DNA of 64,000 nucleotides from Eubacteriales bacterium (GCA_045660745.1 JAZREJ010000041.1:12656-76655); one strand, 5' to 3'; positions 28,212 through 39,567 are shown, counted from the first letter of the stretch. Notes: generated by a model not told the origin, from the sequence alone. Numbers and translations are program-made.

Positions 28212-28580
28212 ATGGATACGCCAAAGATATTTGAAAGTGAGTATAGGTTTTGTCTTATACTGTGGGAGAATGAGCCTATAAAAAGTCCCGAGCTTGCGCG
28301 CATTTGCGCTGAAAAGCTTGGTTGGAAGAGCTCGACTACTTACACTGTAATAAAGAGATTATCGGAGCGCGGAGTTCTCAAAAACGAGCATATGATAGTC
28401 AGCTCTCTCGTGTCTAAGGATGAAGCACAGATATCCGAGATAGACGAGCTTGTAGAGAAAAGATTCGAAGGCTCACTTCCCGCATTTGTTGCCGCATTTA
28501 CAAAAAGACGTGATATAACGGATGCTGAAATAGACGAATTACAGAAGCTTATTGACAATGCGAGGGGAGGGGCTAAATGA
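28212..28580 (+). CDS. BlaI/MecI/CopY family transcriptional repressor
   Basis: 122 aa winged-helix repressor of typical size. ATGA stop/start overlap with the downstream M56 gene. Confidence 0.85.
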   Translation: MDTPKIFESEYRFCLILWENEPIKSPELARICAEKLGWKSSTTYTVIKRLSERGVLKNEHMIVSSLVSKDEAQISEIDELVEKRFEGSLPAFVAAFTKRRDITDAEIDELQKLIDNARGGAK

Positions 28581-31213
28581 ACGGTATTTTCACAAATCTT
28601 GTCAACATGAGTATTTCAGCAAGTATCCTCGCGGGTATCGTACTGATACTCAGATTTGTATTGAAGAGTGCACCGAGATGGATATTTGTTTTGCTTTGGG
28701 GAATCGTTGCAATTCGCCTTGTGTGTCCCGTGACGCTTGAAAGCAATGCAAGTCTTATGCCTGCAACGGAATGGGTAAGCGTGAATGCGGTTACAGGCCC
28801 TGTTGTAACACCGATTGCTTCGCAGACGGATACCTCGGTTCCGAGTATTCCCACACATCCCGATATACAGGCTCCGGAATATACAGCAACAGGTCACGAA
28901 CCGTTTGTGGAAGAAGAGCCTGTAACCAAGACGAGCGTTTTGCCGTATATATGGCTTGCGGGTATTGCGGTAATGCTTGTATACGCTGTCGTAAGCTTTG
29001 TAAGACTTTACAGACGGGTTTCCGACGGAGTAAAGCTTCGCGACAGAGTATATCAAAGCGAAAAAACAGCGTCTCCCTTCGTGCTCGGCTTTTTCAAACC
29101 AAGAATATTTATTCCGTATTCACTAAAAGCCGAAAGCACCGAATACGTTATAGCGCACGAGATGGCGCATATTCGCCGTCATGACCATTGGTGGAAGCCG
29201 CTAGGATACCTTTTGCTTTCTTTACATTGGTTTAATCCTGTAATGTGGGTGGCGTACGTTCTTCTTTGCCGAGATATTGAGTCGGCGTGTGACGAAAAGG
29301 TGGTGCGGGATATGAGTATTCCCGAGCGTGCCGATTATTCCGAGGCGCTTCTTGGATGCAGTGTAAAAGCTCGCGGTGTTTCTGCTTGTCCTCTTGCGTT
29401 CGGCGAGACGGGTGTCAAAAGCCGAATAAAATCCGTGTTGAGCTACAAAAAGCCAGCTTTCTGGGTAATAATTATATCGCTTCTTTTGTGTGTAGGACTT
29501 GTGGTGTTCTTTTTGACAAGCCCAGAAGGAAATAAGGATATCGCTAAAAATACGGAGCTCGGGGAAATAACGCTTATTGACAGGATCGTCTCGCGTGAAG
29601 GGTATTGTGTTATCGAACAGCGATTTACCGACATTTCGCTCGGAATACACACCGCCCGTATCATGCCCGCCGTGACAGAGGGAGTTGAATACGAATTTCT
29701 TCCCGAACAAAGACCGGCATATCTTGCAGATGGTACACAGATATATTTGAAGCGAGTGTCTCAGGTGAAGGGTGATGACACAAAGCTTATTCTGACGTTT
29801 GATTTTGAACATTCGCTTGACGAAAACGGAGGAAGCTTTCTTTCTCCTTGGACGCTTACCGATAACGATACCTACCTCACGGTCTTTAACGTTGCTAACA
29901 GAAAGCTTTACGGAGTTCCGAACGACTATGACAACGCGGTGCTTACAGCGGGTCAGGGTCCCGACTTTGAAATATCCGTATACGTTTTGAAGGAGGCATT
30001 GCGTCACACGGGGGACGATGCCGTCGTCGTTGTGACCCTGAATCAGTTGACCTACCTCAAGGATTATGAAAGAAGGACTCTTTCAGAGGATGAGCTTATA
30101 GAGGATGCGCGCCTTGTTGCATCGGTTACTCACTACGAGCTTGAGGAGGGGAGTGTCAGACTGCACACAGGCAACACGTTTGAGGCTCAGTTTGATTCCG
30201 CCGACGGTATTCATACGGTAGGAGTAAAATACTCTAAAAAAGGAAATGGCTGGATGCTTGATGAAACGCCTGTGAACGTGTATATAAAAGGCACTGATTA
30301 CTCAGCAATTTCCCGAAAATTTCCGACTGTAAGCAGTTGGGCTGTAAGCTATGCCTCCGAAATAGGTGACAGAATTTCCGAGGAGCAGTGGGCTCTGTAT
30401 AACGGTAGCCGTTCAGCGACTATAACCGAGCTTAAGAAGCTTTCGACGAGCTCTCAAGAAAAAGATGAGGGAGTCGAGCTTTATTATATGACCTATTGGA
30501 TAGGCAAGGGTATCAACGGACCGGGATGGACAGATGAGTATAAGATGTTTTCACGGTATTTTGCACTTCACGTTGGAAGAGGCGAGGGTGACGGTTATGC
30601 TGCGATCAACCTTGGTGATATAAGTGTCGAGGAATTTAATAACACCTACAATACCGAAGCCATGATATCCCGCTACGGAAGTGCATATACTGCGGCGGCA
30701 ATGGAGCTATATCAAAACTATCTTTACAGCGGCAAGTCGGGTGTGTCTGCAACTCAGTCAATGGAGGATAAAATTCTTGATGCCTATAACATGGCAACCG
30801 AGGTGGCAAGCTGGTTCAGGATAGAGAGTATGTCTACAAATTGGAACGACTATGTTGATATCGGTGATAAAAGATATTATAAGACCGTACAATTTGAGAC
30901 CCGACGTGATTTGCGTGACTATCTGGAATCTTACTTTTCTGTGAGCGTTGTCGATGAACTATTGTCAAATGATATGTATATCGACTATAATGGAAAGCTT
31001 TACTCGACCGGCGGTGCGCGAGGAGCAGACCTTTTCAAAGGGCGCGAAAGCTATTTGATAACCCGTGTAAATGATACGAAATACTTGCTCAATGTTATTG
31101 TTGAGATATACGGCAACGATGCCGAAACTGTTGAAGATTACGAAGAGTTTATCTTCACCTATGAGAATGTTTCGGGGAGAGGGGTATTTACTTCATTTCC
31201 AAGCATAAGATAA
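28577..31213 (+). CDS. BlaR1/MecR1-like M56 peptidase signal transducer with a large non-canonical extracytoplasmic domain
   Basis: 878 aa. N-terminal TM segments and zinc motif HEMAHIRRHDHWWK, a further TM near aa 305-325, then about 550 aa without a recognisable penicillin-binding (class D) sensor. Confidence 0.8.
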   Translation: MNGIFTNLVNMSISASILAGIVLILRFVLKSAPRWIFVLLWGIVAIRLVCPVTLESNASLMPATEWVSVNAVTGPVVTPIASQTDTSVPSIPTHPDIQAPEYTATGHEPFVEEEPVTKTSVLPYIWLAGIAVMLVYAVVSFVRLYRRVSDGVKLRDRVYQSEKTASPFVLGFFKPRIFIPYSLKAESTEYVIAHEMAHIRRHDHWWKPLGYLLLSLHWFNPVMWVAYVLLCRDIESACDEKVVRDMSIPERADYSEALLGCSVKARGVSACPLAFGETGVKSRIKSVLSYKKPAFWVIIISLLLCVGLVVFFLTSPEGNKDIAKNTELGEITLIDRIVSREGYCVIEQRFTDISLGIHTARIMPAVTEGVEYEFLPEQRPAYLADGTQIYLKRVSQVKGDDTKLILTFDFEHSLDENGGSFLSPWTLTDNDTYLTVFNVANRKLYGVPNDYDNAVLTAGQGPDFEISVYVLKEALRHTGDDAVVVVTLNQLTYLKDYERRTLSEDELIEDARLVASVTHYELEEGSVRLHTGNTFEAQFDSADGIHTVGVKYSKKGNGWMLDETPVNVYIKGTDYSAISRKFPTVSSWAVSYASEIGDRISEEQWALYNGSRSATITELKKLSTSSQEKDEGVELYYMTYWIGKGINGPGWTDEYKMFSRYFALHVGRGEGDGYAAINLGDISVEEFNNTYNTEAMISRYGSAYTAAAMELYQNYLYSGKSGVSATQSMEDKILDAYNMATEVASWFRIESMSTNWNDYVDIGDKRYYKTVQFETRRDLRDYLESYFSVSVVDELLSNDMYIDYNGKLYSTGGARGADLFKGRESYLITRVNDTKYLLNVIVEIYGNDAETVEDYEEFIFTYENVSGRGVFTSFPSIR

Positions 31214-31219
31214 CAAAAA

Positions 31220-31249
31220 CAGGGTAGGACGTTTTAACGTCCTACCCTG
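31220..31249. terminator. bidirectional terminator hairpin between convergent genes
   Basis: CAGGGTAGGACGT (31220-31232) / ACGTCCTACCCTG (31237-31249). The T-run is on the minus-strand side (plus AAAAAC at 31215-31220). Confidence 0.7.
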
Positions 31250-31313
31250 CAAATGCTTTATTCTTCATCTAATAAACAGTTATAATAACAAGTAAAAACA
31301 AAATATTATTCTT

Positions 31314-31847
31314 TTAATTTGAGAACCAATTTATTGAACTGACAGAATTGACCGAACCGTCGTTCCATAATTTGATAACAGCTTGTTGCAGCTTATCCAT
31401 TCTTTGCGAATAGGCGCTTGCATTTAAGCCGGTCTCTGTTTTTTTCTGATTAAACGAGTGCGAGAACTCATCAAACCAGTAGATCATATCTGTGTTAACA
31501 ATGCAAAGAACGTTGTCTTCGTTGAACGCAAAGTATCCCGCGATGTTTGAATCAATTGTTATTCTCTTTTCTGAAGTTAATGTAAGATTATCTTTGCCGA
31601 AATCGCATATGACCAAAACCGAAGATTCTCTTCCAAAAATTGCCCGGGTGCACTTTTGTGCCTCTGTTACACTGTATCTGTCGGGTATTTTTATTTTTAA
31701 ATCTGCCCCGGTGCTCGTTGGAATCTCCGTCGGACTTTGCTTGTCGGGTGTTTTTGTTTTTACTACGGCAAAGCAAATAACTAACACTGACAGAACAACG
31801 AACAAAGAAACAGCTATTATCGTTATCCTTTTTCCAAAAATATACAC
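31314..31847 (-). CDS. hypothetical membrane-anchored protein
   Basis: 177 aa, GTG start. One N-terminal TM helix (IIAVSLFVVLSVLVICFAVV), then a Pro/Thr-rich linker and a globular domain. Confidence 0.5.
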   Translation of the reverse strand: MYIFGKRITIIAVSLFVVLSVLVICFAVVKTKTPDKQSPTEIPTSTGADLKIKIPDRYSVTEAQKCTRAIFGRESSVLVICDFGKDNLTLTSEKRITIDSNIAGYFAFNEDNVLCIVNTDMIYWFDEFSHSFNQKKTETGLNASAYSQRMDKLQQAVIKLWNDGSVNSVSSINWFSN

Positions 31848-31851
31848 AACA

Positions 31852-31896
31852 TCCTTTCTGCAAACATTTCAAAATGACTTTTTGCCCTTTTTCACC
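31852..31896 (-). promoter_or_regulatory. conserved intercistronic element, copy A
   Basis: Minus strand reads GGTGAAAAAGGGCAAAAAGTCATTTTGAAATGTTTGCAGAAAGGA. The 39-nt core is 35/39 identical to copy B (36883-36921). It ends 4 nt before the GTG start at 31847. Confidence 0.6.
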
Positions 31897-33529
31897 TGTA
31901 CCTCTCCCTGTACCTCTCAACTATCAAGAGTTCTTCTTCCGAATAGTACTCATCTTCGGTAATGGCGTCAAGTCCGTGATCATTTAAAAAGGAAAGATAA
32001 TTTTCATACTGTGTGATGAGCGCAAGAGCTATTTCCTTTTCACCGACAGTATAGGTCATATCTCCGCTTTCCTTGTCTATCCTGTATTTGGTCATTTCGC
32101 CATCCAAAAAAAGGGGTGCGGAAAAATTATCATAAAGTAATCTTTCGAGAGAACCATCCAAATTCGGAAATAGGCTTCTATAGGATGTCATATTAAAGAA
32201 CTGGATGTGAGATGGCGCCTCGTTATCTTCGATAATATAACGGCTTGTTATATTTTCGTATTCTGCATCATCAATATGCACACGTATCTTATCAGATACA
32301 AGGTAGAAAGCACGAGGATAGGGAGCGTTTTTCACCTGCTCTATAGAATACGCGTCAAAATCCGCGTTCATTTCCTCCATGGCAAAGGCTATGGGCACAC
32401 AGAAAGAGGCAAGCTCGGGGGTATCTATTTTTTTGATATACTCAAGAAGAGTGTCAAACGTTATACCGTTCTTTTTATAGTCGGAGGCGGTATGGACTGC
32501 AAGCCAGTCGGGGGTGAAGATTTTTCCGTTCGCTGTCAGCGCCCACGGACTCACGAATGCCCTGTTAAGAGCCACCTCGTCGCCCGAATAAAGAGCTTCT
32601 ATCTGCTCGTCGGTGAAAACACTTCCGTTTTCGGCATTTGCCTTGATAAAAACACTTTTCGGAATGTTCATTTCCTTTACCGCCGAAAGAACGGTAAGCT
32701 CCCACAGAGAGCGCTCTTTTTCGTAAAACGGCCGAAGGAAGCTTTTGAGAGTGTCCTTTTCCACAAGGTCTGCCACAAAGGCTTCTATTCCGTAAAAATC
32801 AGTGACGTATTTTGTGCAGTATTGTGCATATTCTGAAATATATACGTCCCTTCCGCTGTTGTTAAAGTTCCACGGCCAGGAAAGCACGCCCGTTTTTTCT
32901 ATCGCTTTATTATAAGAATTAGCTGTAGTTTCCTTCCAAGGATCCCATTGACTGTCATTATAGTTCTTTCTTTCGTTCAGCCAAAGGATAAGGTCGTTTA
33001 CATCGATTCCTTCCTCAAATTCTAAAACGGAAAATCCGTTTTCTTTTGAAGTGACAGACTCGTAATTCAAATATTGCAATGGCTGAAGCGTCTCTGTGTT
33101 CTTTAGAATATCTGCATCAAATTGAGCCCTGCCTCCAACAAACCTTATGTATTCTGCCCCCTTCTCGGAATAAGAGGGACAGTAATAGCAAAAGTCTTCG
33201 ATAGAGTTTATCCGAGTCAGTATAATATCTTCTTGACAAATATCTTGGAGATTTACAGTAGGGATAAACACTTCTTTTAAGTAAGATGGCTTGTGATCGT
33301 TTGCAAAGGTTGATGTGAGGTGATCGTACAACACTCGGCAGTTGACCTTCGTGTATTCGTCTTCTTTTTTATTTCCCAAGGAAATCGTTTCGTCGGTAAA
33401 GGCATCTATTTCGAGTAATACGTAAGATCTGAGCACTCTGCGCTTTTGTACCTTTTCCGGCAATTCATCAGCATATACCAGAGTCGAAAGAGTGATGAAA
33501 ACAAGTATACATATTATAAGCTTTTTCAT
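31892..33529 (-). CDS. hypothetical secreted protein
   Basis: 545 aa. Signal peptide MKKLIICILVFITLSTLVYA; RBS GGGGGAG. No family recognised. Confidence 0.6.
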   Translation of the reverse strand: MKKLIICILVFITLSTLVYADELPEKVQKRRVLRSYVLLEIDAFTDETISLGNKKEDEYTKVNCRVLYDHLTSTFANDHKPSYLKEVFIPTVNLQDICQEDIILTRINSIEDFCYYCPSYSEKGAEYIRFVGGRAQFDADILKNTETLQPLQYLNYESVTSKENGFSVLEFEEGIDVNDLILWLNERKNYNDSQWDPWKETTANSYNKAIEKTGVLSWPWNFNNSGRDVYISEYAQYCTKYVTDFYGIEAFVADLVEKDTLKSFLRPFYEKERSLWELTVLSAVKEMNIPKSVFIKANAENGSVFTDEQIEALYSGDEVALNRAFVSPWALTANGKIFTPDWLAVHTASDYKKNGITFDTLLEYIKKIDTPELASFCVPIAFAMEEMNADFDAYSIEQVKNAPYPRAFYLVSDKIRVHIDDAEYENITSRYIIEDNEAPSHIQFFNMTSYRSLFPNLDGSLERLLYDNFSAPLFLDGEMTKYRIDKESGDMTYTVGEKEIALALITQYENYLSFLNDHGLDAITEDEYYSEEELLIVERYRERYR

Positions 33530-33533
33530 AATA

Positions 33534-34088
33534 TCACTCCCCCCCTAACTGTTCAAAAAGCTCTTTGCAAAGAGCGTGATATGCTTCGTATTGCGAAATA
33601 AGAGCGGAAGCAGTCTCATCTGAGTGCAGTTCTTTGTCGGGGACAGAGGTGTTGTCGGCTCTCGTCGACAAGGCAACAGTATAAGTGCTCGTGCCGTATG
33701 GAACAAAAACACTTGTTTCTTCTGCTCTGTAACCCTCGGGAAGGGTACTTTCGTCTATTGTAAAAGCAAAGAACTCACTCGGTCTTTCAAACGCGACAGA
33801 TCCGTTCTCAGTTTTTTTGTTGAACACCAATTCCTTTTGGTAACTCATTTGATGTTCAAGTGAGTGTATCGGAACGTATTTGTAAACGTTTATTTGAATA
33901 CCAGAAAGATCGACCTTTTCATCATCGCACGTGAGGACCAACGAGAAATCTCCGATTTCATCCGACAAAGTGATATCCGTGTCGGATACGGGTTTTTCGG
34001 TGCCCTCGGCGGGAGGGCTTTTTTTCGCACATCCCGCCATTAGCAAAAGCACAAGAGTGAGTAATAGACAGATATTATGTTTTTTCAT
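33534..34088 (-). CDS. hypothetical lipoprotein
   Basis: ORF track 33534..34148; start moved to ATG 34088 (MKKHNICLLLTLVLLLMAGC, lipobox MAGC). Confidence 0.6.
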   Translation of the reverse strand: MKKHNICLLLTLVLLLMAGCAKKSPPAEGTEKPVSDTDITLSDEIGDFSLVLTCDDEKVDLSGIQINVYKYVPIHSLEHQMSYQKELVFNKKTENGSVAFERPSEFFAFTIDESTLPEGYRAEETSVFVPYGTSTYTVALSTRADNTSVPDKELHSDETASALISQYEAYHALCKELFEQLGGE

Positions 34089-34155
34089 ATATAACCCCAT
34101 GTTCAAGAACTGATAATTACATACTGCAAAGTTTGATAGTTTTTTCATATATACG

Positions 34156-35198
34156 TTAGTTTAATGCTGCATTAATATCATATGATACATTACCAACAAT
34201 TCCCTCGTTAATGATAACTACTGTTATTTCTTTTGCCCCATTGCCTCCGAAACTAATCTCGTTAATTATATACTCGTTATTTTGAATAGTTGCTTCTGAA
34301 ATACTATAATTTCCGGTATAGGTTTTTTTGATAACCTTTACTCTAGTGTTAGAACCAGAGAAATTTACAGTTATTGTTATTGGTTGCACGCTACTTCCGG
34401 AAGGTTTAAACGTAATATAATTACTTGAAAGAGGGGATAACGATTCTTGTTGATTAGACGGGTAAGCAAAAGGATACGAAGTGCATTCTTGTGTTCTTTG
34501 TGCTTTTCCCCATGCATTGTTTCCTGTAGGTGCTATATCATAAAAATAATCTGCATCACTGTTAAATGTCATGAACCCGGAATATGCTTTTGCAAGATTG
34601 TAATTCGAGTTGTGGAGCGTTAATCCGGTATTAATCGCGGTCAAAGGATTGTTCGACGAGGTTGCGAATGATGCGAGAATTTTTTTAAGTTGAACAAAAT
34701 ACAGTGTCAATCTCATCAAAGACGTTGGCAACGGCTTCTGCAACCTCTATATTGACTGTAGTGCTTGCCTAATAATATACTCTGAATCTTCCCACTGTTT
34801 TACAATCATATGTTTGAGGCCATGTGTCATCATTTCGTCTTGACAATTCGTCTAATGTCCGTTGTATTGTGGACATATCGTAATCTTTGGAATCGCGATT
34901 ATTTTCATAAAATCTGCTTATCTCCCAATGTAATCCTGTGCCACATTCTTTTCTTATTATTTTTGTTTCGGCTTCTTCGCCTAAAATGGATTTACAAAGA
35001 GATAACACATAGTCATATTCTGAAATATCATCTTTATTTTTTGCAGTGTCAAATGTGTTTAATTCTGTTTGACAATCGTTGTTACAACATGCGGGGACTT
35101 TTTCTGTGCTTATTTCATTTGCATAAATTGGAAGTAACACTTGCAATAAAACCAAGGTGATAAGTAAAATGCTTATAATTTTTTTAATAGATTCTCAT
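34156..35198 (-). pseudogene. decayed gene for a secreted protein (two ORF fragments, 34769..35155 and 34156..34743)
   Basis: ATG 35198 is out of frame by 1 nt with the signal-peptide-like IKKIISILLITLVLLQVLLPIYA. In-frame TAG at 34771-34769. A plausible protein sequence (ASTTVNIEVAEAVANVFDEIDTV) continues past the TAG, then the frame shifts into the 34743 ORF. Confidence 0.55.
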
Positions 35199-35314
35199 TA
35201 TTAATAGAAAGGTTGAACGGCGTGTTAATTCAGTTAAGCCACATCGTATTCGCCTCCTTTTTGAGATTTGATATGCAATAAAATAAAGTGTAAATTGAAT
35301 AAAGCTCATTCTCT

Positions 35315-36562
35315 TTAACGAAGTGCACTTGTGCTTATGTAATAATAAACAAGTGACGAGGTCGTAACAGCATCTCCTCCAAGCTCTTTATTCGGAGTAT
35401 ATTCGGCGGCTCCAAAAATCAAATAATCATCTGTAACGTGACCGATATAATGCTTTCCGTCATTTATTGTATCGACATAAACAAGAATATCGTTCTTCAC
35501 ATCGTAATACATTGGGCAATCATTGTTCCATCCATCCCACACTATTAATGAATCATTACAATCAACAAGGTCTATTGTCAAAGAACTTTTAATTATCGGA
35601 TAAGATTTATTGTTTTTATACAGTATAAGCCCGTCATCAATTTTCGCAACCAGCGTGTTGTTATATCCGCTCAAATATAAATAGTTTTGTCCCAAAAATA
35701 TATCCGATTGCTCAGGCATTGTATTTTTTAAAACATACTCTTTTTTTGATTCATCATACCCCAGATATGAAACACCATTGTAATATATTGGCTCGGTAGC
35801 CCTTTTTTCGGCAACCAATGTAATTTCGTCCGCTTCTATATTATACTTATATAAATTAACGTTGGCTTTATTGTTGGTTACAGATACCGTGTCCTGAAAA
35901 TAAACTTCATTATCATTAATAACAATAGCACCAAAATTCCAGGAATACATATATCCGTTTTCGTCCTTTGTATAAGTGTAAAAGAGCTTGTTTACGCCTG
36001 TGTTCATGTCAAGACAGTTCAATGAAGCCTTAAGCCAATTGGCATTATCATCCTCCTTCCAAATAACATATCTGTCATTAACTACATAAATAGAGATTTC
36101 TTTATCTGTATTGAAGTGATATACGGTTTCCTCGGTGCAAGTGTCTAGGTTATATCTAAGAATGCTTTTATTCCCGTTTTGCTCTACTAAAAAATACAAA
36201 TAATTTTTATATTCTGCATGCAAAGCAAATGTATCATAAGATTCAATATTATTAAAAACCACCTTGTTTAGAGTTAAGCTCGGATAAACATTTGAAAACG
36301 CTTCGCATTTTTTATATAAATTTAATGTATACCTTTGAATATAATCTTTGCCTCCGACGTATTCCTTATATGCTATCTCTTTTTCTACAATTTCATAATG
36401 TTTGTTTTTATTAAAAACATCTGTGTCGATTTTCAAAACATTAGATATACCTTCTTCTTGTTCGTCTGCGATATCCGAAAAAGGCTCAGAGTTTCCTTTG
36501 CATGAAGAAAAAGTAAGAAAAAAACACAGCAATAGTACCGCAAATAATTTTTTATTAAACAT
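35315..36562 (-). CDS. hypothetical lipoprotein, beta-propeller-like (DUF5050/TolB-like pattern)
   Basis: 415 aa; lipobox FSSC. Repeated hydrophobic/aromatic beta-strand pattern (YNLDT..VYHF, YVIW, LYKYNIE, etc.). Confidence 0.6.
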   Translation of the reverse strand: MFNKKLFAVLLLCFFLTFSSCKGNSEPFSDIADEQEEGISNVLKIDTDVFNKNKHYEIVEKEIAYKEYVGGKDYIQRYTLNLYKKCEAFSNVYPSLTLNKVVFNNIESYDTFALHAEYKNYLYFLVEQNGNKSILRYNLDTCTEETVYHFNTDKEISIYVVNDRYVIWKEDDNANWLKASLNCLDMNTGVNKLFYTYTKDENGYMYSWNFGAIVINDNEVYFQDTVSVTNNKANVNLYKYNIEADEITLVAEKRATEPIYYNGVSYLGYDESKKEYVLKNTMPEQSDIFLGQNYLYLSGYNNTLVAKIDDGLILYKNNKSYPIIKSSLTIDLVDCNDSLIVWDGWNNDCPMYYDVKNDILVYVDTINDGKHYIGHVTDDYLIFGAAEYTPNKELGGDAVTTSSLVYYYISTSALR

Positions 36563-36594
36563 AATTTCTCCTTAAAATCTCATGACCTTTCTTA

Positions 36595-36870
36595 TCAAAA
36601 CAAATTTGTTATATTTGTTTTGATACTATACACTGTATTTTGCTCAAAGTTTTCTCCTACATATACTCTTGCAACTGTTTTGACTCGATATGTACCATTT
36701 GATAAACCCGATTTTGCATTGGTTAAAGAGCTTTTATATCGGATATTCAAATCTGAAAGGATCGAAGATGTATACATATATCTTGGAGTTACAGAGCCTG
36801 CTAACACAGTGATAAAAAAGCAACTTAACAAAAGCAATACCATAATTACCGACATCATCTTTTTAAGCAT
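36595..36870 (-). CDS. small secreted hypothetical protein
   Basis: ORF track 36595..36960; start moved to ATG 36870 behind AAAGGAGGGGG. Signal peptide MLKKMMSVIMVLLLLSCFFITVLAG. Confidence 0.5.
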   Translation of the reverse strand: MLKKMMSVIMVLLLLSCFFITVLAGSVTPRYMYTSSILSDLNIRYKSSLTNAKSGLSNGTYRVKTVARVYVGENFEQNTVYSIKTNITNLF

Positions 36871-36882
36871 AAGAATTCCCCC

Positions 36883-36928
36883 TCCTTTCTGCAAGTATTT
36901 TGAAATGACTTTTTGCCCTTTCATAAAC
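36883..36928 (-). promoter_or_regulatory. conserved intercistronic element, copy B
   Basis: Minus strand reads GTTTATGAAAGGGCAAAAAGTCATTTCAAAATACTTGCAGAAAGGA. Lies between the anti-sigma stop (36967) and ATG 36870. Confidence 0.6.
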
Positions 36929-36966
36929 ATATAACAAATCAGAGGGGGAAATTCTTTCACATTTTT

Positions 36967-37626
36967 TTACTTTTTTACAGATTCGGCAATTTTAACCAAA
37001 ACATCCTTGCCGATATTGGTAGATATATAAAAAACATATTCTCCGTTGTCCCACATTACGTGATGATAATCGTGATTATCTTTATAGTATATTCCGACAT
37101 TCCCGTTTATATTGATCTCTTCAATAACGGTATCCTCGGTATTAAGGCTAATATTAAAGCCCGATTTTGTATATTGATTAAAGCTTATCACGAGATTATC
37201 CTTGACATAATCAACGCATCTCGATATCGGAGTGACGCTCCACACATCCTCAATATATCCGTCAAGGTTATAAGTTATTTTGTAAAGCTCTTCAATGGAC
37301 TGCGAGGCGTTATTATCAAGTTGAACCAAAACCATTGAATTGGTATCAAAAATGCTTACAAAGAAGTTTGCAACGGCACTTCTCACGCTATCGAAAGCCA
37401 AAGCGGTTGCGGATAAGCAAAGCAACAGAATCAAAATAAAGCAAGCAACACGTTTTCTTGTAGAATTGATCAATTTATAATACGGTTTTTTACGCCTTTT
37501 TATCAATGCTCCCATTTTGTCTTCAAACTCTTTTGTGAAAATATGTTCGTCAGGCGAAATACTGTCGCATTCCTGAAGCATCGCATTTTGTAAAGCGATA
37601 ACAAAAACTTTATTGATCTTGTTCAC
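36967..37626 (-). CDS. anti-sigma factor-like membrane protein (DUF4367-type C-terminal domain)
   Basis: 219 aa. Overlaps the sigma gene by 17 nt. Cytoplasmic N-terminus, one TM (VACFILILLLCLSATALAF), C-terminal ...VMWDNGEYVFYISTNIGKDVLVKIAESVKK. Confidence 0.7.
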   Translation of the reverse strand: MNKINKVFVIALQNAMLQECDSISPDEHIFTKEFEDKMGALIKRRKKPYYKLINSTRKRVACFILILLLCLSATALAFDSVRSAVANFFVSIFDTNSMVLVQLDNNASQSIEELYKITYNLDGYIEDVWSVTPISRCVDYVKDNLVISFNQYTKSGFNISLNTEDTVIEEININGNVGIYYKDNHDYHHVMWDNGEYVFYISTNIGKDVLVKIAESVKK

Positions 37627-38149
37627 CTTCCTCCAAAAGATTTTTTAATTGTTTTTTTGCCCTACCTATGCGCACAGAAACTGTATTTTCCGTTATCGTG
37701 AGCATTTTTGCTATTTCTTTTGTTGAAAATCCAATTACGTAACGTAGATATAAAACATCTTTATAAATATCATCAAGCTGTAAGATACAATTTAAAAGCA
37801 CTTCATAATTATAGTTTTCGAAAAAATCTATCTCTATTGCGGTCGTATCATCGTTAAATTCTTTATGGTGGCTTGCATTTCTTTTGTTTTTGTTATAAAT
37901 GTTAATAGCTGCGTTCTTAGCTATAATAACAACGTATGGCTTTAATTCATGACAGGATAATTGAGAAATTTTTTCAAAACTATTTGCAATATTTAAAAAA
38001 GCTTGATGAACCGCATCTTCTGAATCGTGAACGTTTTTCAAAATATTAAAGCATACCGAATACATATATTGCTTGTAATTTATATACAACTCTTCAAAAC
38101 TTCTTTTTTGTTCTTCACGTTCCAATACAGAAAGATATAATTGCAACAT
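37610..38149 (-). CDS. ECF-type sigma-70 family RNA polymerase sigma factor
   Basis: 179 aa. Region 2 (DSEDAVHQAFLNI) and region 4 HTH (FSTKEIAKMLTITENTVSVRIGRAKKQLK). Confidence 0.9.
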   Translation of the reverse strand: MLQLYLSVLEREEQKRSFEELYINYKQYMYSVCFNILKNVHDSEDAVHQAFLNIANSFEKISQLSCHELKPYVVIIAKNAAINIYNKNKRNASHHKEFNDDTTAIEIDFFENYNYEVLLNCILQLDDIYKDVLYLRYVIGFSTKEIAKMLTITENTVSVRIGRAKKQLKNLLEEGEQDQ

Positions 38150-38288
38150 TTGTAACCCCTTTTAGCCCGAAAATCAAACTGAATTTTAATTGAATAAGCA
38201 ATTGCAAGTAACACAAAAATTCTCCTATAAAATCGCGAAGGTTTGCAGATATCACCTGCCTAATACGACTTTTTGTTACTTTATTACA

Positions 38289-38318
38289 ATTATAACACGG
38301 CATCAACATTAAAGTCAA
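38289..38318 (-). promoter_or_regulatory. sigma-A-type promoter upstream of the sigma/anti-sigma operon
   Basis: Minus strand TTGACT (38318-38313), 18-nt spacer, TATAAT (38294-38289), followed by a leader of about 130 nt. Confidence 0.55.
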
Positions 38319-38393
38319 GCAATGCATGTGTTATAAACTGTGTAAAGCGTAAATTTTGACAAGGTGTATGCAACAATTGAAAAGCAGGCAATA

Positions 38394-38452
38394 CAAAAAA
38401 TCAAGCGGGAGGCTCACCGGCTTACTAAACGTAAGTCAAGAGTCTCCCGCTT
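38394..38452 (-). terminator. terminator of the 43630-38491 carbohydrate operon
   Basis: Minus strand: AAGCGGGAG / CTCCCGCTT outer stem (38452-38444 / 38411-38403), inner stem CTTAC/GTAAG, then GATTTTTTG. Confidence 0.75.
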
Positions 38453-38490
38453 TGATATTAACAAAGTAGTGCGTGTCTTTTTTGAAGCAA

Positions 38491-39567
38491 TTAAAGCTTA
38501 ATAGGTTTACCTGTCCTTATACTTTCGTAGCAAGCATTCATAGCACAAATAGTATTGCGGTGCCATCCAAGATTAATCTTGGGGGTCTTGCCCTCACGGA
38601 TACAGGTTGCGAACTCATCAATGAGTCCTACCCACTCGTCAAAGTATGTGTACTGAACAACGTACTTGGAGTCGGGAGTAGAATTGTGATATACGTTGGG
38701 ACCGAAGCAATCGGTCATAACAGAGCCCTTGTCGGCATTGAGAATGATGTTAACCTCCATTCTCTTGGGGAAGATCTCCCATCCGGGACCGGGAACCTTA
38801 AGCTTAGCTTCGGTTCTTGACCAAGAGGGGTCGAGAAGGAATACAACGCCGTTTTTCATCTTACCTGTTACTGCAACCATATCCTCTTCCTCAATATCTA
38901 GACGGATGTTAGGTGCAACAGTTGCAAAGATGGTATCAAATTCACTGCCTGTCATCTCGCGGATGAGGTCAAAAATGTGGGGATGGTCACAGATAGCACC
39001 GCCTCTGAAACGGTGATCACCGTCCTTGAGGGGAACTCTCTTACCGTAGCTCTTCTCGGGAACGCCCTGCCAGGGGAACGCCCAAACGGGAGAAAGGGTG
39101 ATATTTGTCGCCTCAAAAGAACGGAGTGTTCCGAGAGCACCTGCGTTGTTAAGCTCCTTAAGTCTCATTACAACGGGCTTGTAGTGAAGCTCAAGCTCAA
39201 CCTGGAATACGATTCCCGCCTCACGGCATACTCTTTCCATTTCTGCATACTCCTCCATATCGAAGGTGGGTATCTTCATGGAGAGGATATGGATGCCGCG
39301 CTCTGCACACATCTTAACCTGACGGAGGTGATCGCTGTTCTCACTTGCAAGAACTACAGCCTCGATCTCGGGATGCTCGGCAAGCATCTGTTCCTCACTG
39401 TCATAGCAAGGAATACCCTGTACGGAATTGAGGAATATCTCCTTTACTTCAGCGTTAGCACAGGAAACTGCAACCCAATCAAGCTTGGGGTTGTCGCGAA
39501 GTGTCTGATAATACTTTCTTGTGTGTCCATGGGTCATGGACATCATAGCAATTTTAATAGGCTTCAT
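38491..39567 (-). CDS. Gfo/Idh/MocA family oxidoreductase
   Basis: 358 aa. N-terminal Rossmann-like segment KIAMMSMTHGHTRKY..EAVVLASEN and a C-terminal alpha/beta domain. Confidence 0.8.
   Translation of the reverse strand: MKPIKIAMMSMTHGHTRKYYQTLRDNPKLDWVAVSCANAEVKEIFLNSVQGIPCYDSEEQMLAEHPEIEAVVLASENSDHLRQVKMCAERGIHILSMKIPTFDMEEYAEMERVCREAGIVFQVELELHYKPVVMRLKELNNAGALGTLRSFEATNITLSPVWAFPWQGVPEKSYGKRVPLKDGDHRFRGGAICDHPHIFDLIREMTGSEFDTIFATVAPNIRLDIEEEDMVAVTGKMKNGVVFLLDPSWSRTEAKLKVPGPGWEIFPKRMEVNIILNADKGSVMTDCFGPNVYHNSTPDSKYVVQYTYFDEWVGLIDEFATCIREGKTPKINLGWHRNTICAMNACYESIRTGKPIKL

Follow-up and report, generated by a model that had tools for sequence, protein, structure and literature searches.

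A 39-nt element repeated in an ECF-type sigma factor operon is probably a transcribed leader, joined at one copy to a putative promoter nested in a hairpin

Introduction

What is the role of a short non-coding sequence that stands, nearly unchanged, in front of two unrelated genes of the same operon? The question is raised by 64,000 nucleotides of DNA from a Eubacteriales bacterium (GCA_045660745.1, JAZREJ010000041.1:12656-76655), called the window throughout, in which a 39-nt element precedes two genes of an operon headed by an ECF-type sigma factor gene. An earlier note on this DNA suggested that the element was either a sigma-dependent internal promoter, with an AAGTC/CGTC-like -10 box, or an RNA operator.

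In ECF operons such as those of SigW, SigV and SigM in Bacillus subtilis, the gene for a two-domain sigma factor (regions 2 and 4) shares a transcript with that for a membrane anti-sigma factor, and the target promoters carry conserved -35 and -10 boxes at a fixed spacing. For annotation, the case considered here illustrates that conservation immediately ahead of a gene does not in itself mark a promoter: the boxes lie just outside the repeat, and the repeat would be leader RNA. The sigma family concerned is common in gut and rumen Clostridia and controls secreted proteins of unknown function, and with a defined promoter motif its regulon could be searched for.

Results and discussion

The operon and its two copies of the element

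Read along the minus strand from 38149 to 31314, the operon consists of the sigma gene, a DUF4367 gene, copy B of the element, genes for proteins of 91, 415, 128, 195, 204 and 545 aa, copy A, and a last gene for a protein of 177 aa. Domain matches identify the product of the first gene (37610-38149) as an ECF-type sigma factor with Sigma70_r2 and r4_2 domains that passes TIGR02937, and that of the second (36967-37626) as a DUF4367 membrane protein, the presumed anti-sigma factor. Consensus scans place a housekeeping-type promoter, TTGACT-18-(TG)TATAAT with 11/12 matches, ahead of the sigma gene (38289-38318) and a strong terminator-like hairpin with a 14-bp stem and a T-run at the operon end (31219-31250), both on the minus strand. 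The block has a G+C content of 31-43%, compared with ~46% in its surroundings, and is itself a mosaic, with ~31-36% at 34-38 kb, near copy B, and 41-43% at 32-34 kb, near copy A.

With the four variable positions masked, the pattern AAAGGGCAAAAAGTCATTT-NN-AAAT-NN-TTGCAGAAAGGA matches the 64-kb window exactly twice, both times on the minus strand, at 31890-31852 (copy A) and 36921-36883 (copy B). Read against each other the copies are identical at 35/39 positions, as had been proposed; the shuffled window gave no match, and no copies are expected by chance. The two are direct repeats 5,031 bp apart that bracket six genes, from the 91-aa to the 545-aa gene. The proteins encoded downstream of A (177 aa, membrane-anchored, GTG start; 31314-31847, minus strand) and of B (91 aa, secreted; 36595-36870, minus strand) are unrelated, and past ~43 nt the flanks show no A/B similarity, local alignments scoring no higher than shuffles. 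This supports the view that a non-coding module was reused rather than a gene duplicated.

At the upstream end the homology runs 2-4 nt beyond the 39-mer, as TGAAAAAGGGC in A and TGAAAGGGC in B, with an indel of two A residues; copy A then covers 31852-31894 and copy B, the predicted 5'-UTR from the putative start to the Shine-Dalgarno (SD) sequence, 36883-36923. The TGA at 31894-31892, with which copy A begins, is indeed the stop codon of the open reading frame for the 545-aa secreted protein (31892-33529, minus strand). Both copies end in AGAAAGGA and, as the earlier note held, in the SD of the gene downstream. At copy B the SD runs on as GGAGGGGG, 7 nt before an ATG; at copy A it is reduced to AAAGGA and stands only 4 nt before the GTG, rather close to it. 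The four differences are TG (31871-31870) in A versus CA (36902-36901) in B, and GT (31865-31864) versus AC (36896-36895). They had been described as dinucleotides replaced by their own reverse complements; the exchanges are real, but since all four are transitions each block is merely two adjacent transitions.

A dispersed repeat of the REP or MITE kind, or a chance match, is suggested by the AT-rich, partly palindromic composition and by nothing more, and we give this explanation practically no credence. Chance predicts no matches, as above, and a degenerate family pattern had none in 185,579 species-representative genomes, a set in which the genomes of the window and of its relative L001 were not recovered and which is therefore silent on those two. 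The same pattern found two evidently unrelated matches in JGI metagenomes, one of them low-complexity, and a profile of the leader run over 90 sequences picked out A and B, the orthologous leaders of L001 and L003/L004, and nothing else. The common dispersed repeat that the earlier note had allowed for is thus not what the searches returned: there are two copies in 64 kb, both in one operon.

A known RNA family (riboswitch, leader or sRNA) was considered separately and rejected, as nothing relevant in Rfam was matched across 31000-38600 at E<=1; a lone sub-threshold match to STnc50 lay elsewhere.

Copy B lies in a conserved intergenic module

About 100 related loci were fetched by way of sigma protein homologues, from metagenome-assembled genomes of Ruminococcus, Oscillospiraceae and other Clostridia. 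In ~25 of them the order is sigma gene, DUF4367 gene and an intergenic region of ~90-120 nt, and this last can be aligned with the copy-B region. We aligned 18 distinct modules from this position after the DUF4367 gene, with sigma factors 42-71% identical to that of the window. The order at B is a promoter-like TGTCAGGA-N14-TTGTTAT with a C-rich anti-SD in its spacer, the 39-mer ~7 nt later, and then the SD. In the alignment, block 1 is TGTCAGGA(W)T, with TGTC nearly invariant, and block 2, at a fixed spacing from it, is (C)TGATTTGTTAT, in which TTTGTTAT is invariant in 18/18. Block 3, ~7 nt past block 2, reads TTGAAC(A/G)GG or, in the window and its closest relatives, TGAAAGGRC, which is the start of the 39-mer. 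Blocks 1 and 2 are conserved as sequence, and the rest of the hairpin described below is conserved as structure only.

The first gene after the module encodes a small secreted protein that is always homologous to the 91-aa protein of the window (L001 6494-6898, L002 11308-11712, L003 2782-3186, L005 4418-4840, L008 4587-5009). These homologues, which belong to no Pfam family, measure 133-140 aa in relatives, and the window version appears to be short of ~45 internal residues. Genes farther downstream vary among relatives, with RicinB-M23 peptidases, C39 peptidases and ABC/FtsX transporters among the neighbours. In four loci (L005-L007 and L011) the block of sigma, anti-sigma and effector genes is flanked by large serine recombinase genes and NikA/MobC-like genes, and there it apparently rides on a mobile element. 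A second intergenic region, at L001 6898-6984 and L097 1833-1915, has in common a motif TATGCCACCGAA(T/C)TT..TTTGTT(T)AA upstream of the second effector gene; the motif is absent from the window and may be another regulatory site. In the literature on DUF4367 anti-sigma factors and Ruminococcus ECF systems we found no description of the module.

A promoter-like motif precedes copy B and recurs within the sigma gene

On the minus strand of the window, the -35-like box TGAAAGAA (36952-36959) has the canonical spacing but is a poor match to the family consensus TGTCAGGA, at 5/8 positions, and the -10-like box GATTTGTTAT (36931-36940) contains TTGTTAT at 36937-36931. Searching the window with either box alone was uninformative. 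The combined motif, TGTCAGGA-N14-TTGTTAT, has ~70 matches of at least 13/15 in 1.9 Mb of loci, versus 3 in shuffles, and save for a few scattered 13/15 matches these sit at two places per locus: the intergenic module and, ~1,000-1,046 nt upstream of it, the sigma coding sequence. Two boxes at a fixed spacing with a free spacer are the signature of -35/-10 recognition, and the motif upstream of copy B, with its fixed spacing, variable spacer and adjoining cognate sigma gene, has the features expected of such a promoter. One locus, L010, keeps the boxes without the hairpin, so that conservation of the motif does not merely serve pairing. Upstream of the sigma operons no copy of the motif was found, SigA/housekeeping-type promoters standing there instead.

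Could the 39-mer itself be the sigma-dependent promoter, used at both copies with AAGTC as its -10 and echoed in the sigma leader? Both copies do lie inside an ECF-type sigma operon, the GTC-containing box loosely recalls the ECF -10 motif, and the 9-mer CAAAAAGTC recurs in the sigma leader. This explanation nevertheless appears very improbable to us. At B the nearly invariant boxes precede the 39-mer, at A they are missing, and flank alignment confirms the earlier note's own remark that the upstream regions of the two copies have no -35 in common. The AAGTC stretch is not conserved in the 18 related modules, where the hairpin is kept and its sequence is not (GAAAGGRC/GUCAUUUC, GAAAAG/CUUUUC, GAAAGGA/UCCUUUU or AACAGGGAAAU/AUUUCUUGUU, depending on the locus). 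Were transcription to begin 7 nt past AAGTC, the UTR ahead of the SD would measure ~12-22 nt, which is possible yet unsupported.

The 9-mer of the sigma leader is present, at 38275-38267 and hence one base from where it was first placed, downstream of the near-consensus housekeeping promoter, but it is missing from the sigma leaders of relatives and the leader profile does not detect the site. Its five occurrences in the window (A, B and three more), versus 0.84 expected, are marginal, and the recurrence looks like chance. The idea of a sigma-dependent internal promoter survives in that copy B is physically tied to a putative promoter of sigma type; it does not survive for the 39-mer as such.

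The second place at which the motif occurs is a twin inside the sigma coding sequence, TGTCATGA-N14-TTGTTAT with 14/15 matches (37926-37954, minus strand), over the codons C-Q/H-E-x3-Y-x-V-I-I of sigma region 2. Its box spacing is identical to that of the intergenic motif, its spacer is different, and it has no anti-SD. Counterparts occur at L002 10220, L005 3296, L012-L021 ~6196 and in other loci. Codons are fixed at motif positions (TGT 13/13, CAG 10/10, GTT 13/13, with a background of 50-55% in the same genes), while third positions outside the motif vary freely (TAT/TAC, ATT/ATA, AAG/AAA). The twin is absent from L097, the closest relative, which has other codons there, and from some distant loci. 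The intragenic and intergenic motifs agree within the locus in L010, L019 and L031 and not in the window, L001 or L008, a co-variation that is suggestive only. On codon conservation, the twin is a candidate sigma-dependent internal promoter that would feed the anti-sigma gene.

A covarying hairpin is predicted to mask the ribosome-binding site at copy B

Within the promoter spacer, the anti-SD TTCCCCCTCT (36941-36950, minus strand) is predicted to pair with GGAGGGGGAA at 36885-36876. The resulting fold-back hairpin (36876-36950, minus strand; -31.2 kcal/mol, z -5.1) buries the SD of the 91-aa gene and is followed by a U-rich tail, TTCTTATG. In this fold two of B's variable sites are paired, CA (36902-36901) with the UG in AUGAAAGGGC and A36896 with U36929. 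A long hairpin from the anti-SD to the start codon is predicted in 16/18 loci, with z from -5 to -8.6 relative to dinucleotide shuffles. The anti-SD/SD pairs covary, as CCCCC/GGGGG in the window, CGCCC/GGGCG in L002 and L097, CCCC/GGGG in L003, CCTCCTAA/TTAGGAGG in L005 and CCTCCTG/CAGGAGG in L008, and several hairpin columns show three or four types of Watson-Crick pair. With its stable and covarying anti-SD/SD pairing, copy B can be taken, at the level of prediction, as part of an SD-sequestering hairpin, and copy A is without a partner. The basal stem is G+C-rich and gives way to U-rich tails (UUCUUAUG, AUUUUUAUG, GAUUUAAUUG); the hairpin is unusually long, and the terminator consensus scan did not call it.

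The predicted state of the SD depends on where the RNA begins. In read-through RNA, folded from 150 nt upstream of the -10, its unpaired probability is ~0.00 in 16/18 loci; in RNA from the putative start it is 0.15-0.91 across loci, and 0.85 in the window. A hairpin is predicted to begin 1-4 nt from that start in 18/18 loci. In the window this is the apical hairpin UGAAA-G-GGC(AAAAA)GUC-A-UUUCA (36901-36923, minus strand), which has covarying equivalents in L001, L002, L003 and L097 and would form the 5'-terminal hairpin of the promoter-initiated transcript. The -10 box lies inside the 5' arm of the long hairpin, a geometry that fits a putative inner start from which the 5' arm is excluded.

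A proposed mechanism

On balance we favour the reading that the 39-mer is the transcribed leader (5'-UTR and ribosome-binding site) of effector genes in an ECF-type sigma/DUF4367 operon and not a promoter, with copy B part of a nested-promoter hairpin module and copy A a promoter-less duplicate. From the repeat, the conservation of the module, the covarying hairpin and the absence of promoter boxes at A, we infer a transcription start, a dependence on the sigma factor, a possible termination and a role for copy A.

In the proposed mechanism, a sigma-specific promoter (-35 TGTCAGGA, 14-nt gap, -10 TTGTTAT) would be nested in the 5' arm of the hairpin, within a module of ~90 nt; the 3' arm would carry the SD of the first effector gene and the promoter spacer the anti-SD. 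Read-through RNA from the housekeeping promoter would hold both arms, fold back and hide the SD and, given the U-rich tract after the hairpin, may also terminate. RNA from the nested promoter would start ~6-8 nt past TTGTTAT, at ~36925-36923, within 1-3 nt upstream of the 39-mer; without the 5' arm, its SD would be free and a small 5'-terminal hairpin would be left. Since 36923 is also where the A/B homology sets in, the repeat unit has the same extent as the predicted 5'-UTR between putative start and SD. Copy A would represent the transcribed part only, fused to the end of the 545-aa reading frame. Lacking promoter and anti-SD, it would simply offer an unmasked, rather poorly spaced SD to the last gene of the polycistronic RNA, and it probably arose as a side effect of the shuffling of cassettes within a mosaic operon.

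Such a module may be of wider interest. It would show how a single transcription unit can express its sigma and anti-sigma genes constitutively and yet keep its effector genes insulated, at the level of RNA, for as long as the sigma factor is not released. Promoter, anti-SD and SD would be packed in one hairpin, and the same motif is under synonymous-site constraint in the sigma gene. Compared with the duplicated leader, which is of modest interest in itself, the module and the candidate twin promoter inside the sigma gene are the more interesting result.

State and origin of copy A

Upstream of copy A we found no promoter boxes, no anti-SD and no remnants of either, and its SD has a predicted unpaired probability of 0.79 in the polycistronic context. 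The outgroups L001 and L003 carry the B state at no fewer than three of the four variable positions, which marks A as the derived copy. No credible second copy of the leader was found in the 17 related modules, each tested against its own locus. In relatives at 68-71% sigma identity the leaders have already diverged substantially, so that 35/39 identity between A and B points to duplication or conversion in the recent past. For the 177-aa gene, homologues were found in near-identical strains alone, in which copy A is unchanged; a search for loci where this gene stands first after a module gave no homologue outside those strains. Contigs of strain variants (L092 1-4390) match the 545-aa gene at 85% in mid-gene and at 97% around copy A, and the context upstream and downstream of the copy A region differs in them. 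Together with the mosaic G+C content, this suggests frequent recombination across 31000-38200. Copy A is best read as a recent, promoter-less, lineage-specific duplicate of the leader only, and would serve at most as an unmasked ribosome-binding region for the 177-aa gene.

A 12-nt perfect tandem duplication (GAGAGGTACAGG x2; 31918-31895, minus strand) encodes ERYRERYR at the C-terminus of the 545-aa protein and abuts its stop codon and copy A; it also occurs in the strain variants L092 and L093.

The direct repeats could alternatively be viewed as a recombination substrate: they flank a 5-kb cassette of six genes, and recombination between them would delete the cassette and place the 177-aa gene under the nested promoter, or else the repeat would be the scar of a Campbell-type insertion. 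The bracketing of the 91-aa to 545-aa genes, the mosaic of G+C content and of strain identity with its changed context around A, and the tandem duplication next to A all accord with this. We consider it quite improbable all the same, as 39 nt at 90% identity make a poor substrate and no contig recovered contains a deletion junction; moreover, the 91-aa family is the ancestral first gene, which a simple insertion model does not fit.

The other candidate of the earlier note, an RNA operator, comes closer to the evidence than a promoter in that copy B comprises an apical hairpin and an SD-bearing arm, but nothing indicates a trans-acting partner. In this alternative, an RNA-binding protein or a small RNA would bind the leader in trans, or the leader would be a processing or stability site; either way the first and last effector genes would be co-regulated, and selection for this would keep copy A. 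We regard it as unlikely. The copies remain 35/39 identical where the leaders of relatives at ~70% sigma identity have diverged, and the duplicate spans exactly the predicted transcribed leader. All four differences are transitions, CA-to-TG would turn two Watson-Crick pairs of the B type into wobble pairs, and three of the four substitutions create pairs in copy A's own weak local fold (A10-U27, C15-G21, A16-U20), which hints at selection rather than decay. Copy A is also unchanged in strain variants whose flanking coding sequence differs by ~3%, but 45 unaltered nucleotides are not a significant result at 3% divergence.

Against an operator, the inner leader of relatives is conserved in structure only and not in sequence, the second copy exists in this lineage only, and neither a candidate partner nor an Rfam match was found. 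Local folds of A and of the bare 39-mers, with or without short flanks, are no better than shuffles (z -0.8 to +1.0), which leaves a self-contained RNA motif within the 39-mer unsupported. The exact extent from start to SD and the pair-creating substitutions do leave room for a selected RNA role, whether as operator, processing site or stability element, and a duplicate that ends exactly at the putative start and keeps 35/39 positions could mean that selection acts on a function of the leader RNA itself.

A more far-reaching version of this idea seems doubtful. It would make the leader a functional, portable RNA unit copied precisely from start to SD, so that one trans-acting factor or processing event sets the first and last effector genes, in a sigma family with a nested-promoter hairpin that masks the ribosome-binding site and possibly terminates, and with a twin promoter in the sigma coding sequence that feeds the anti-sigma gene. 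Copying of such precision could be an RNA-templated or a selection-trimmed duplication.

Comparison with known systems

In IS10/Tn10, an inverted repeat is transcribed in full from outside promoters, and its paired arms sequester the signals for translation, while the element's own promoter starts inside the structure and gives RNA that lacks the 5' arm and is translated. The proposed module would behave alike, with masked read-through RNA and open nested-promoter RNA that lacks the 5' arm. Unlike IS10/Tn10, it would protect the effector genes of a sigma/anti-sigma operon, and its 'outside' promoter would be the housekeeping promoter of that same operon. Its putative inner promoter is also presumed to be specific for an alternative sigma factor, and the -10 box and anti-SD are built into the 5' arm. 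Fold-back inhibition of the IS10/Tn10 transposase mRNA goes back to Davis, Simons & Kleckner (1985), as cited in PMC13181058. To judge from its parts, the copy B module would join two known principles, an ECF-type sigma-dependent promoter and fold-back masking of a ribosome-binding site against read-through.

The likeness to ECF operons lies in the small sigma factor, the membrane anti-sigma factor and boxes at a fixed spacing. The boxes themselves are TGTCAGGA and TTGTTAT rather than the classical AAC and CGT, and the operon promoter is of housekeeping type and not autoregulated. The motif itself occurs only within the sigma coding sequence and downstream of the anti-sigma gene.

In Escherichia coli, the promoter rseA P3, which lies within the coding region of rpoE, reportedly depends on sigma-E and drives expression of the anti-sigma genes. 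The twin at 37954-37926 is likewise embedded in a sigma gene and would raise anti-sigma expression, a negative feedback. The families and motifs are unrelated, and the twin is recognised by synonymous-site conservation and identical spacing only.

In Firmicutes, 5' stabiliser hairpins (the ermC and aprE leaders, the cryIIIA STAB-SD) place a stem-loop a few nucleotides from the 5' end, followed by a strong SD. The leader predicted to start at the nested promoter has the same order of a stem-loop at its putative 5' end and then an SD, whereas the hairpin of copy A is weak and internal to a polycistronic RNA.

Other features near the operon end

A mini-ORF of nine codons (31852-31823, minus strand; ATG TTG TGT ATA TTT TTG GAA AAA GGA TAA) has its start codon within the end of copy A and runs, in a different reading frame, across the GTG with which the 177-aa gene begins, and a second SD-like sequence, AAAAAGGA, follows; these features make the true start of the 177-aa gene uncertain. 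Convergent with the operon, a plus-strand gene (28577-31213) encodes an 878-aa membrane sensor-protease of the BlaR1/peptidase M56 type, whose C-terminal region resembles the DL-endopeptidase inhibitor IseA, just under the Pfam cut-off.
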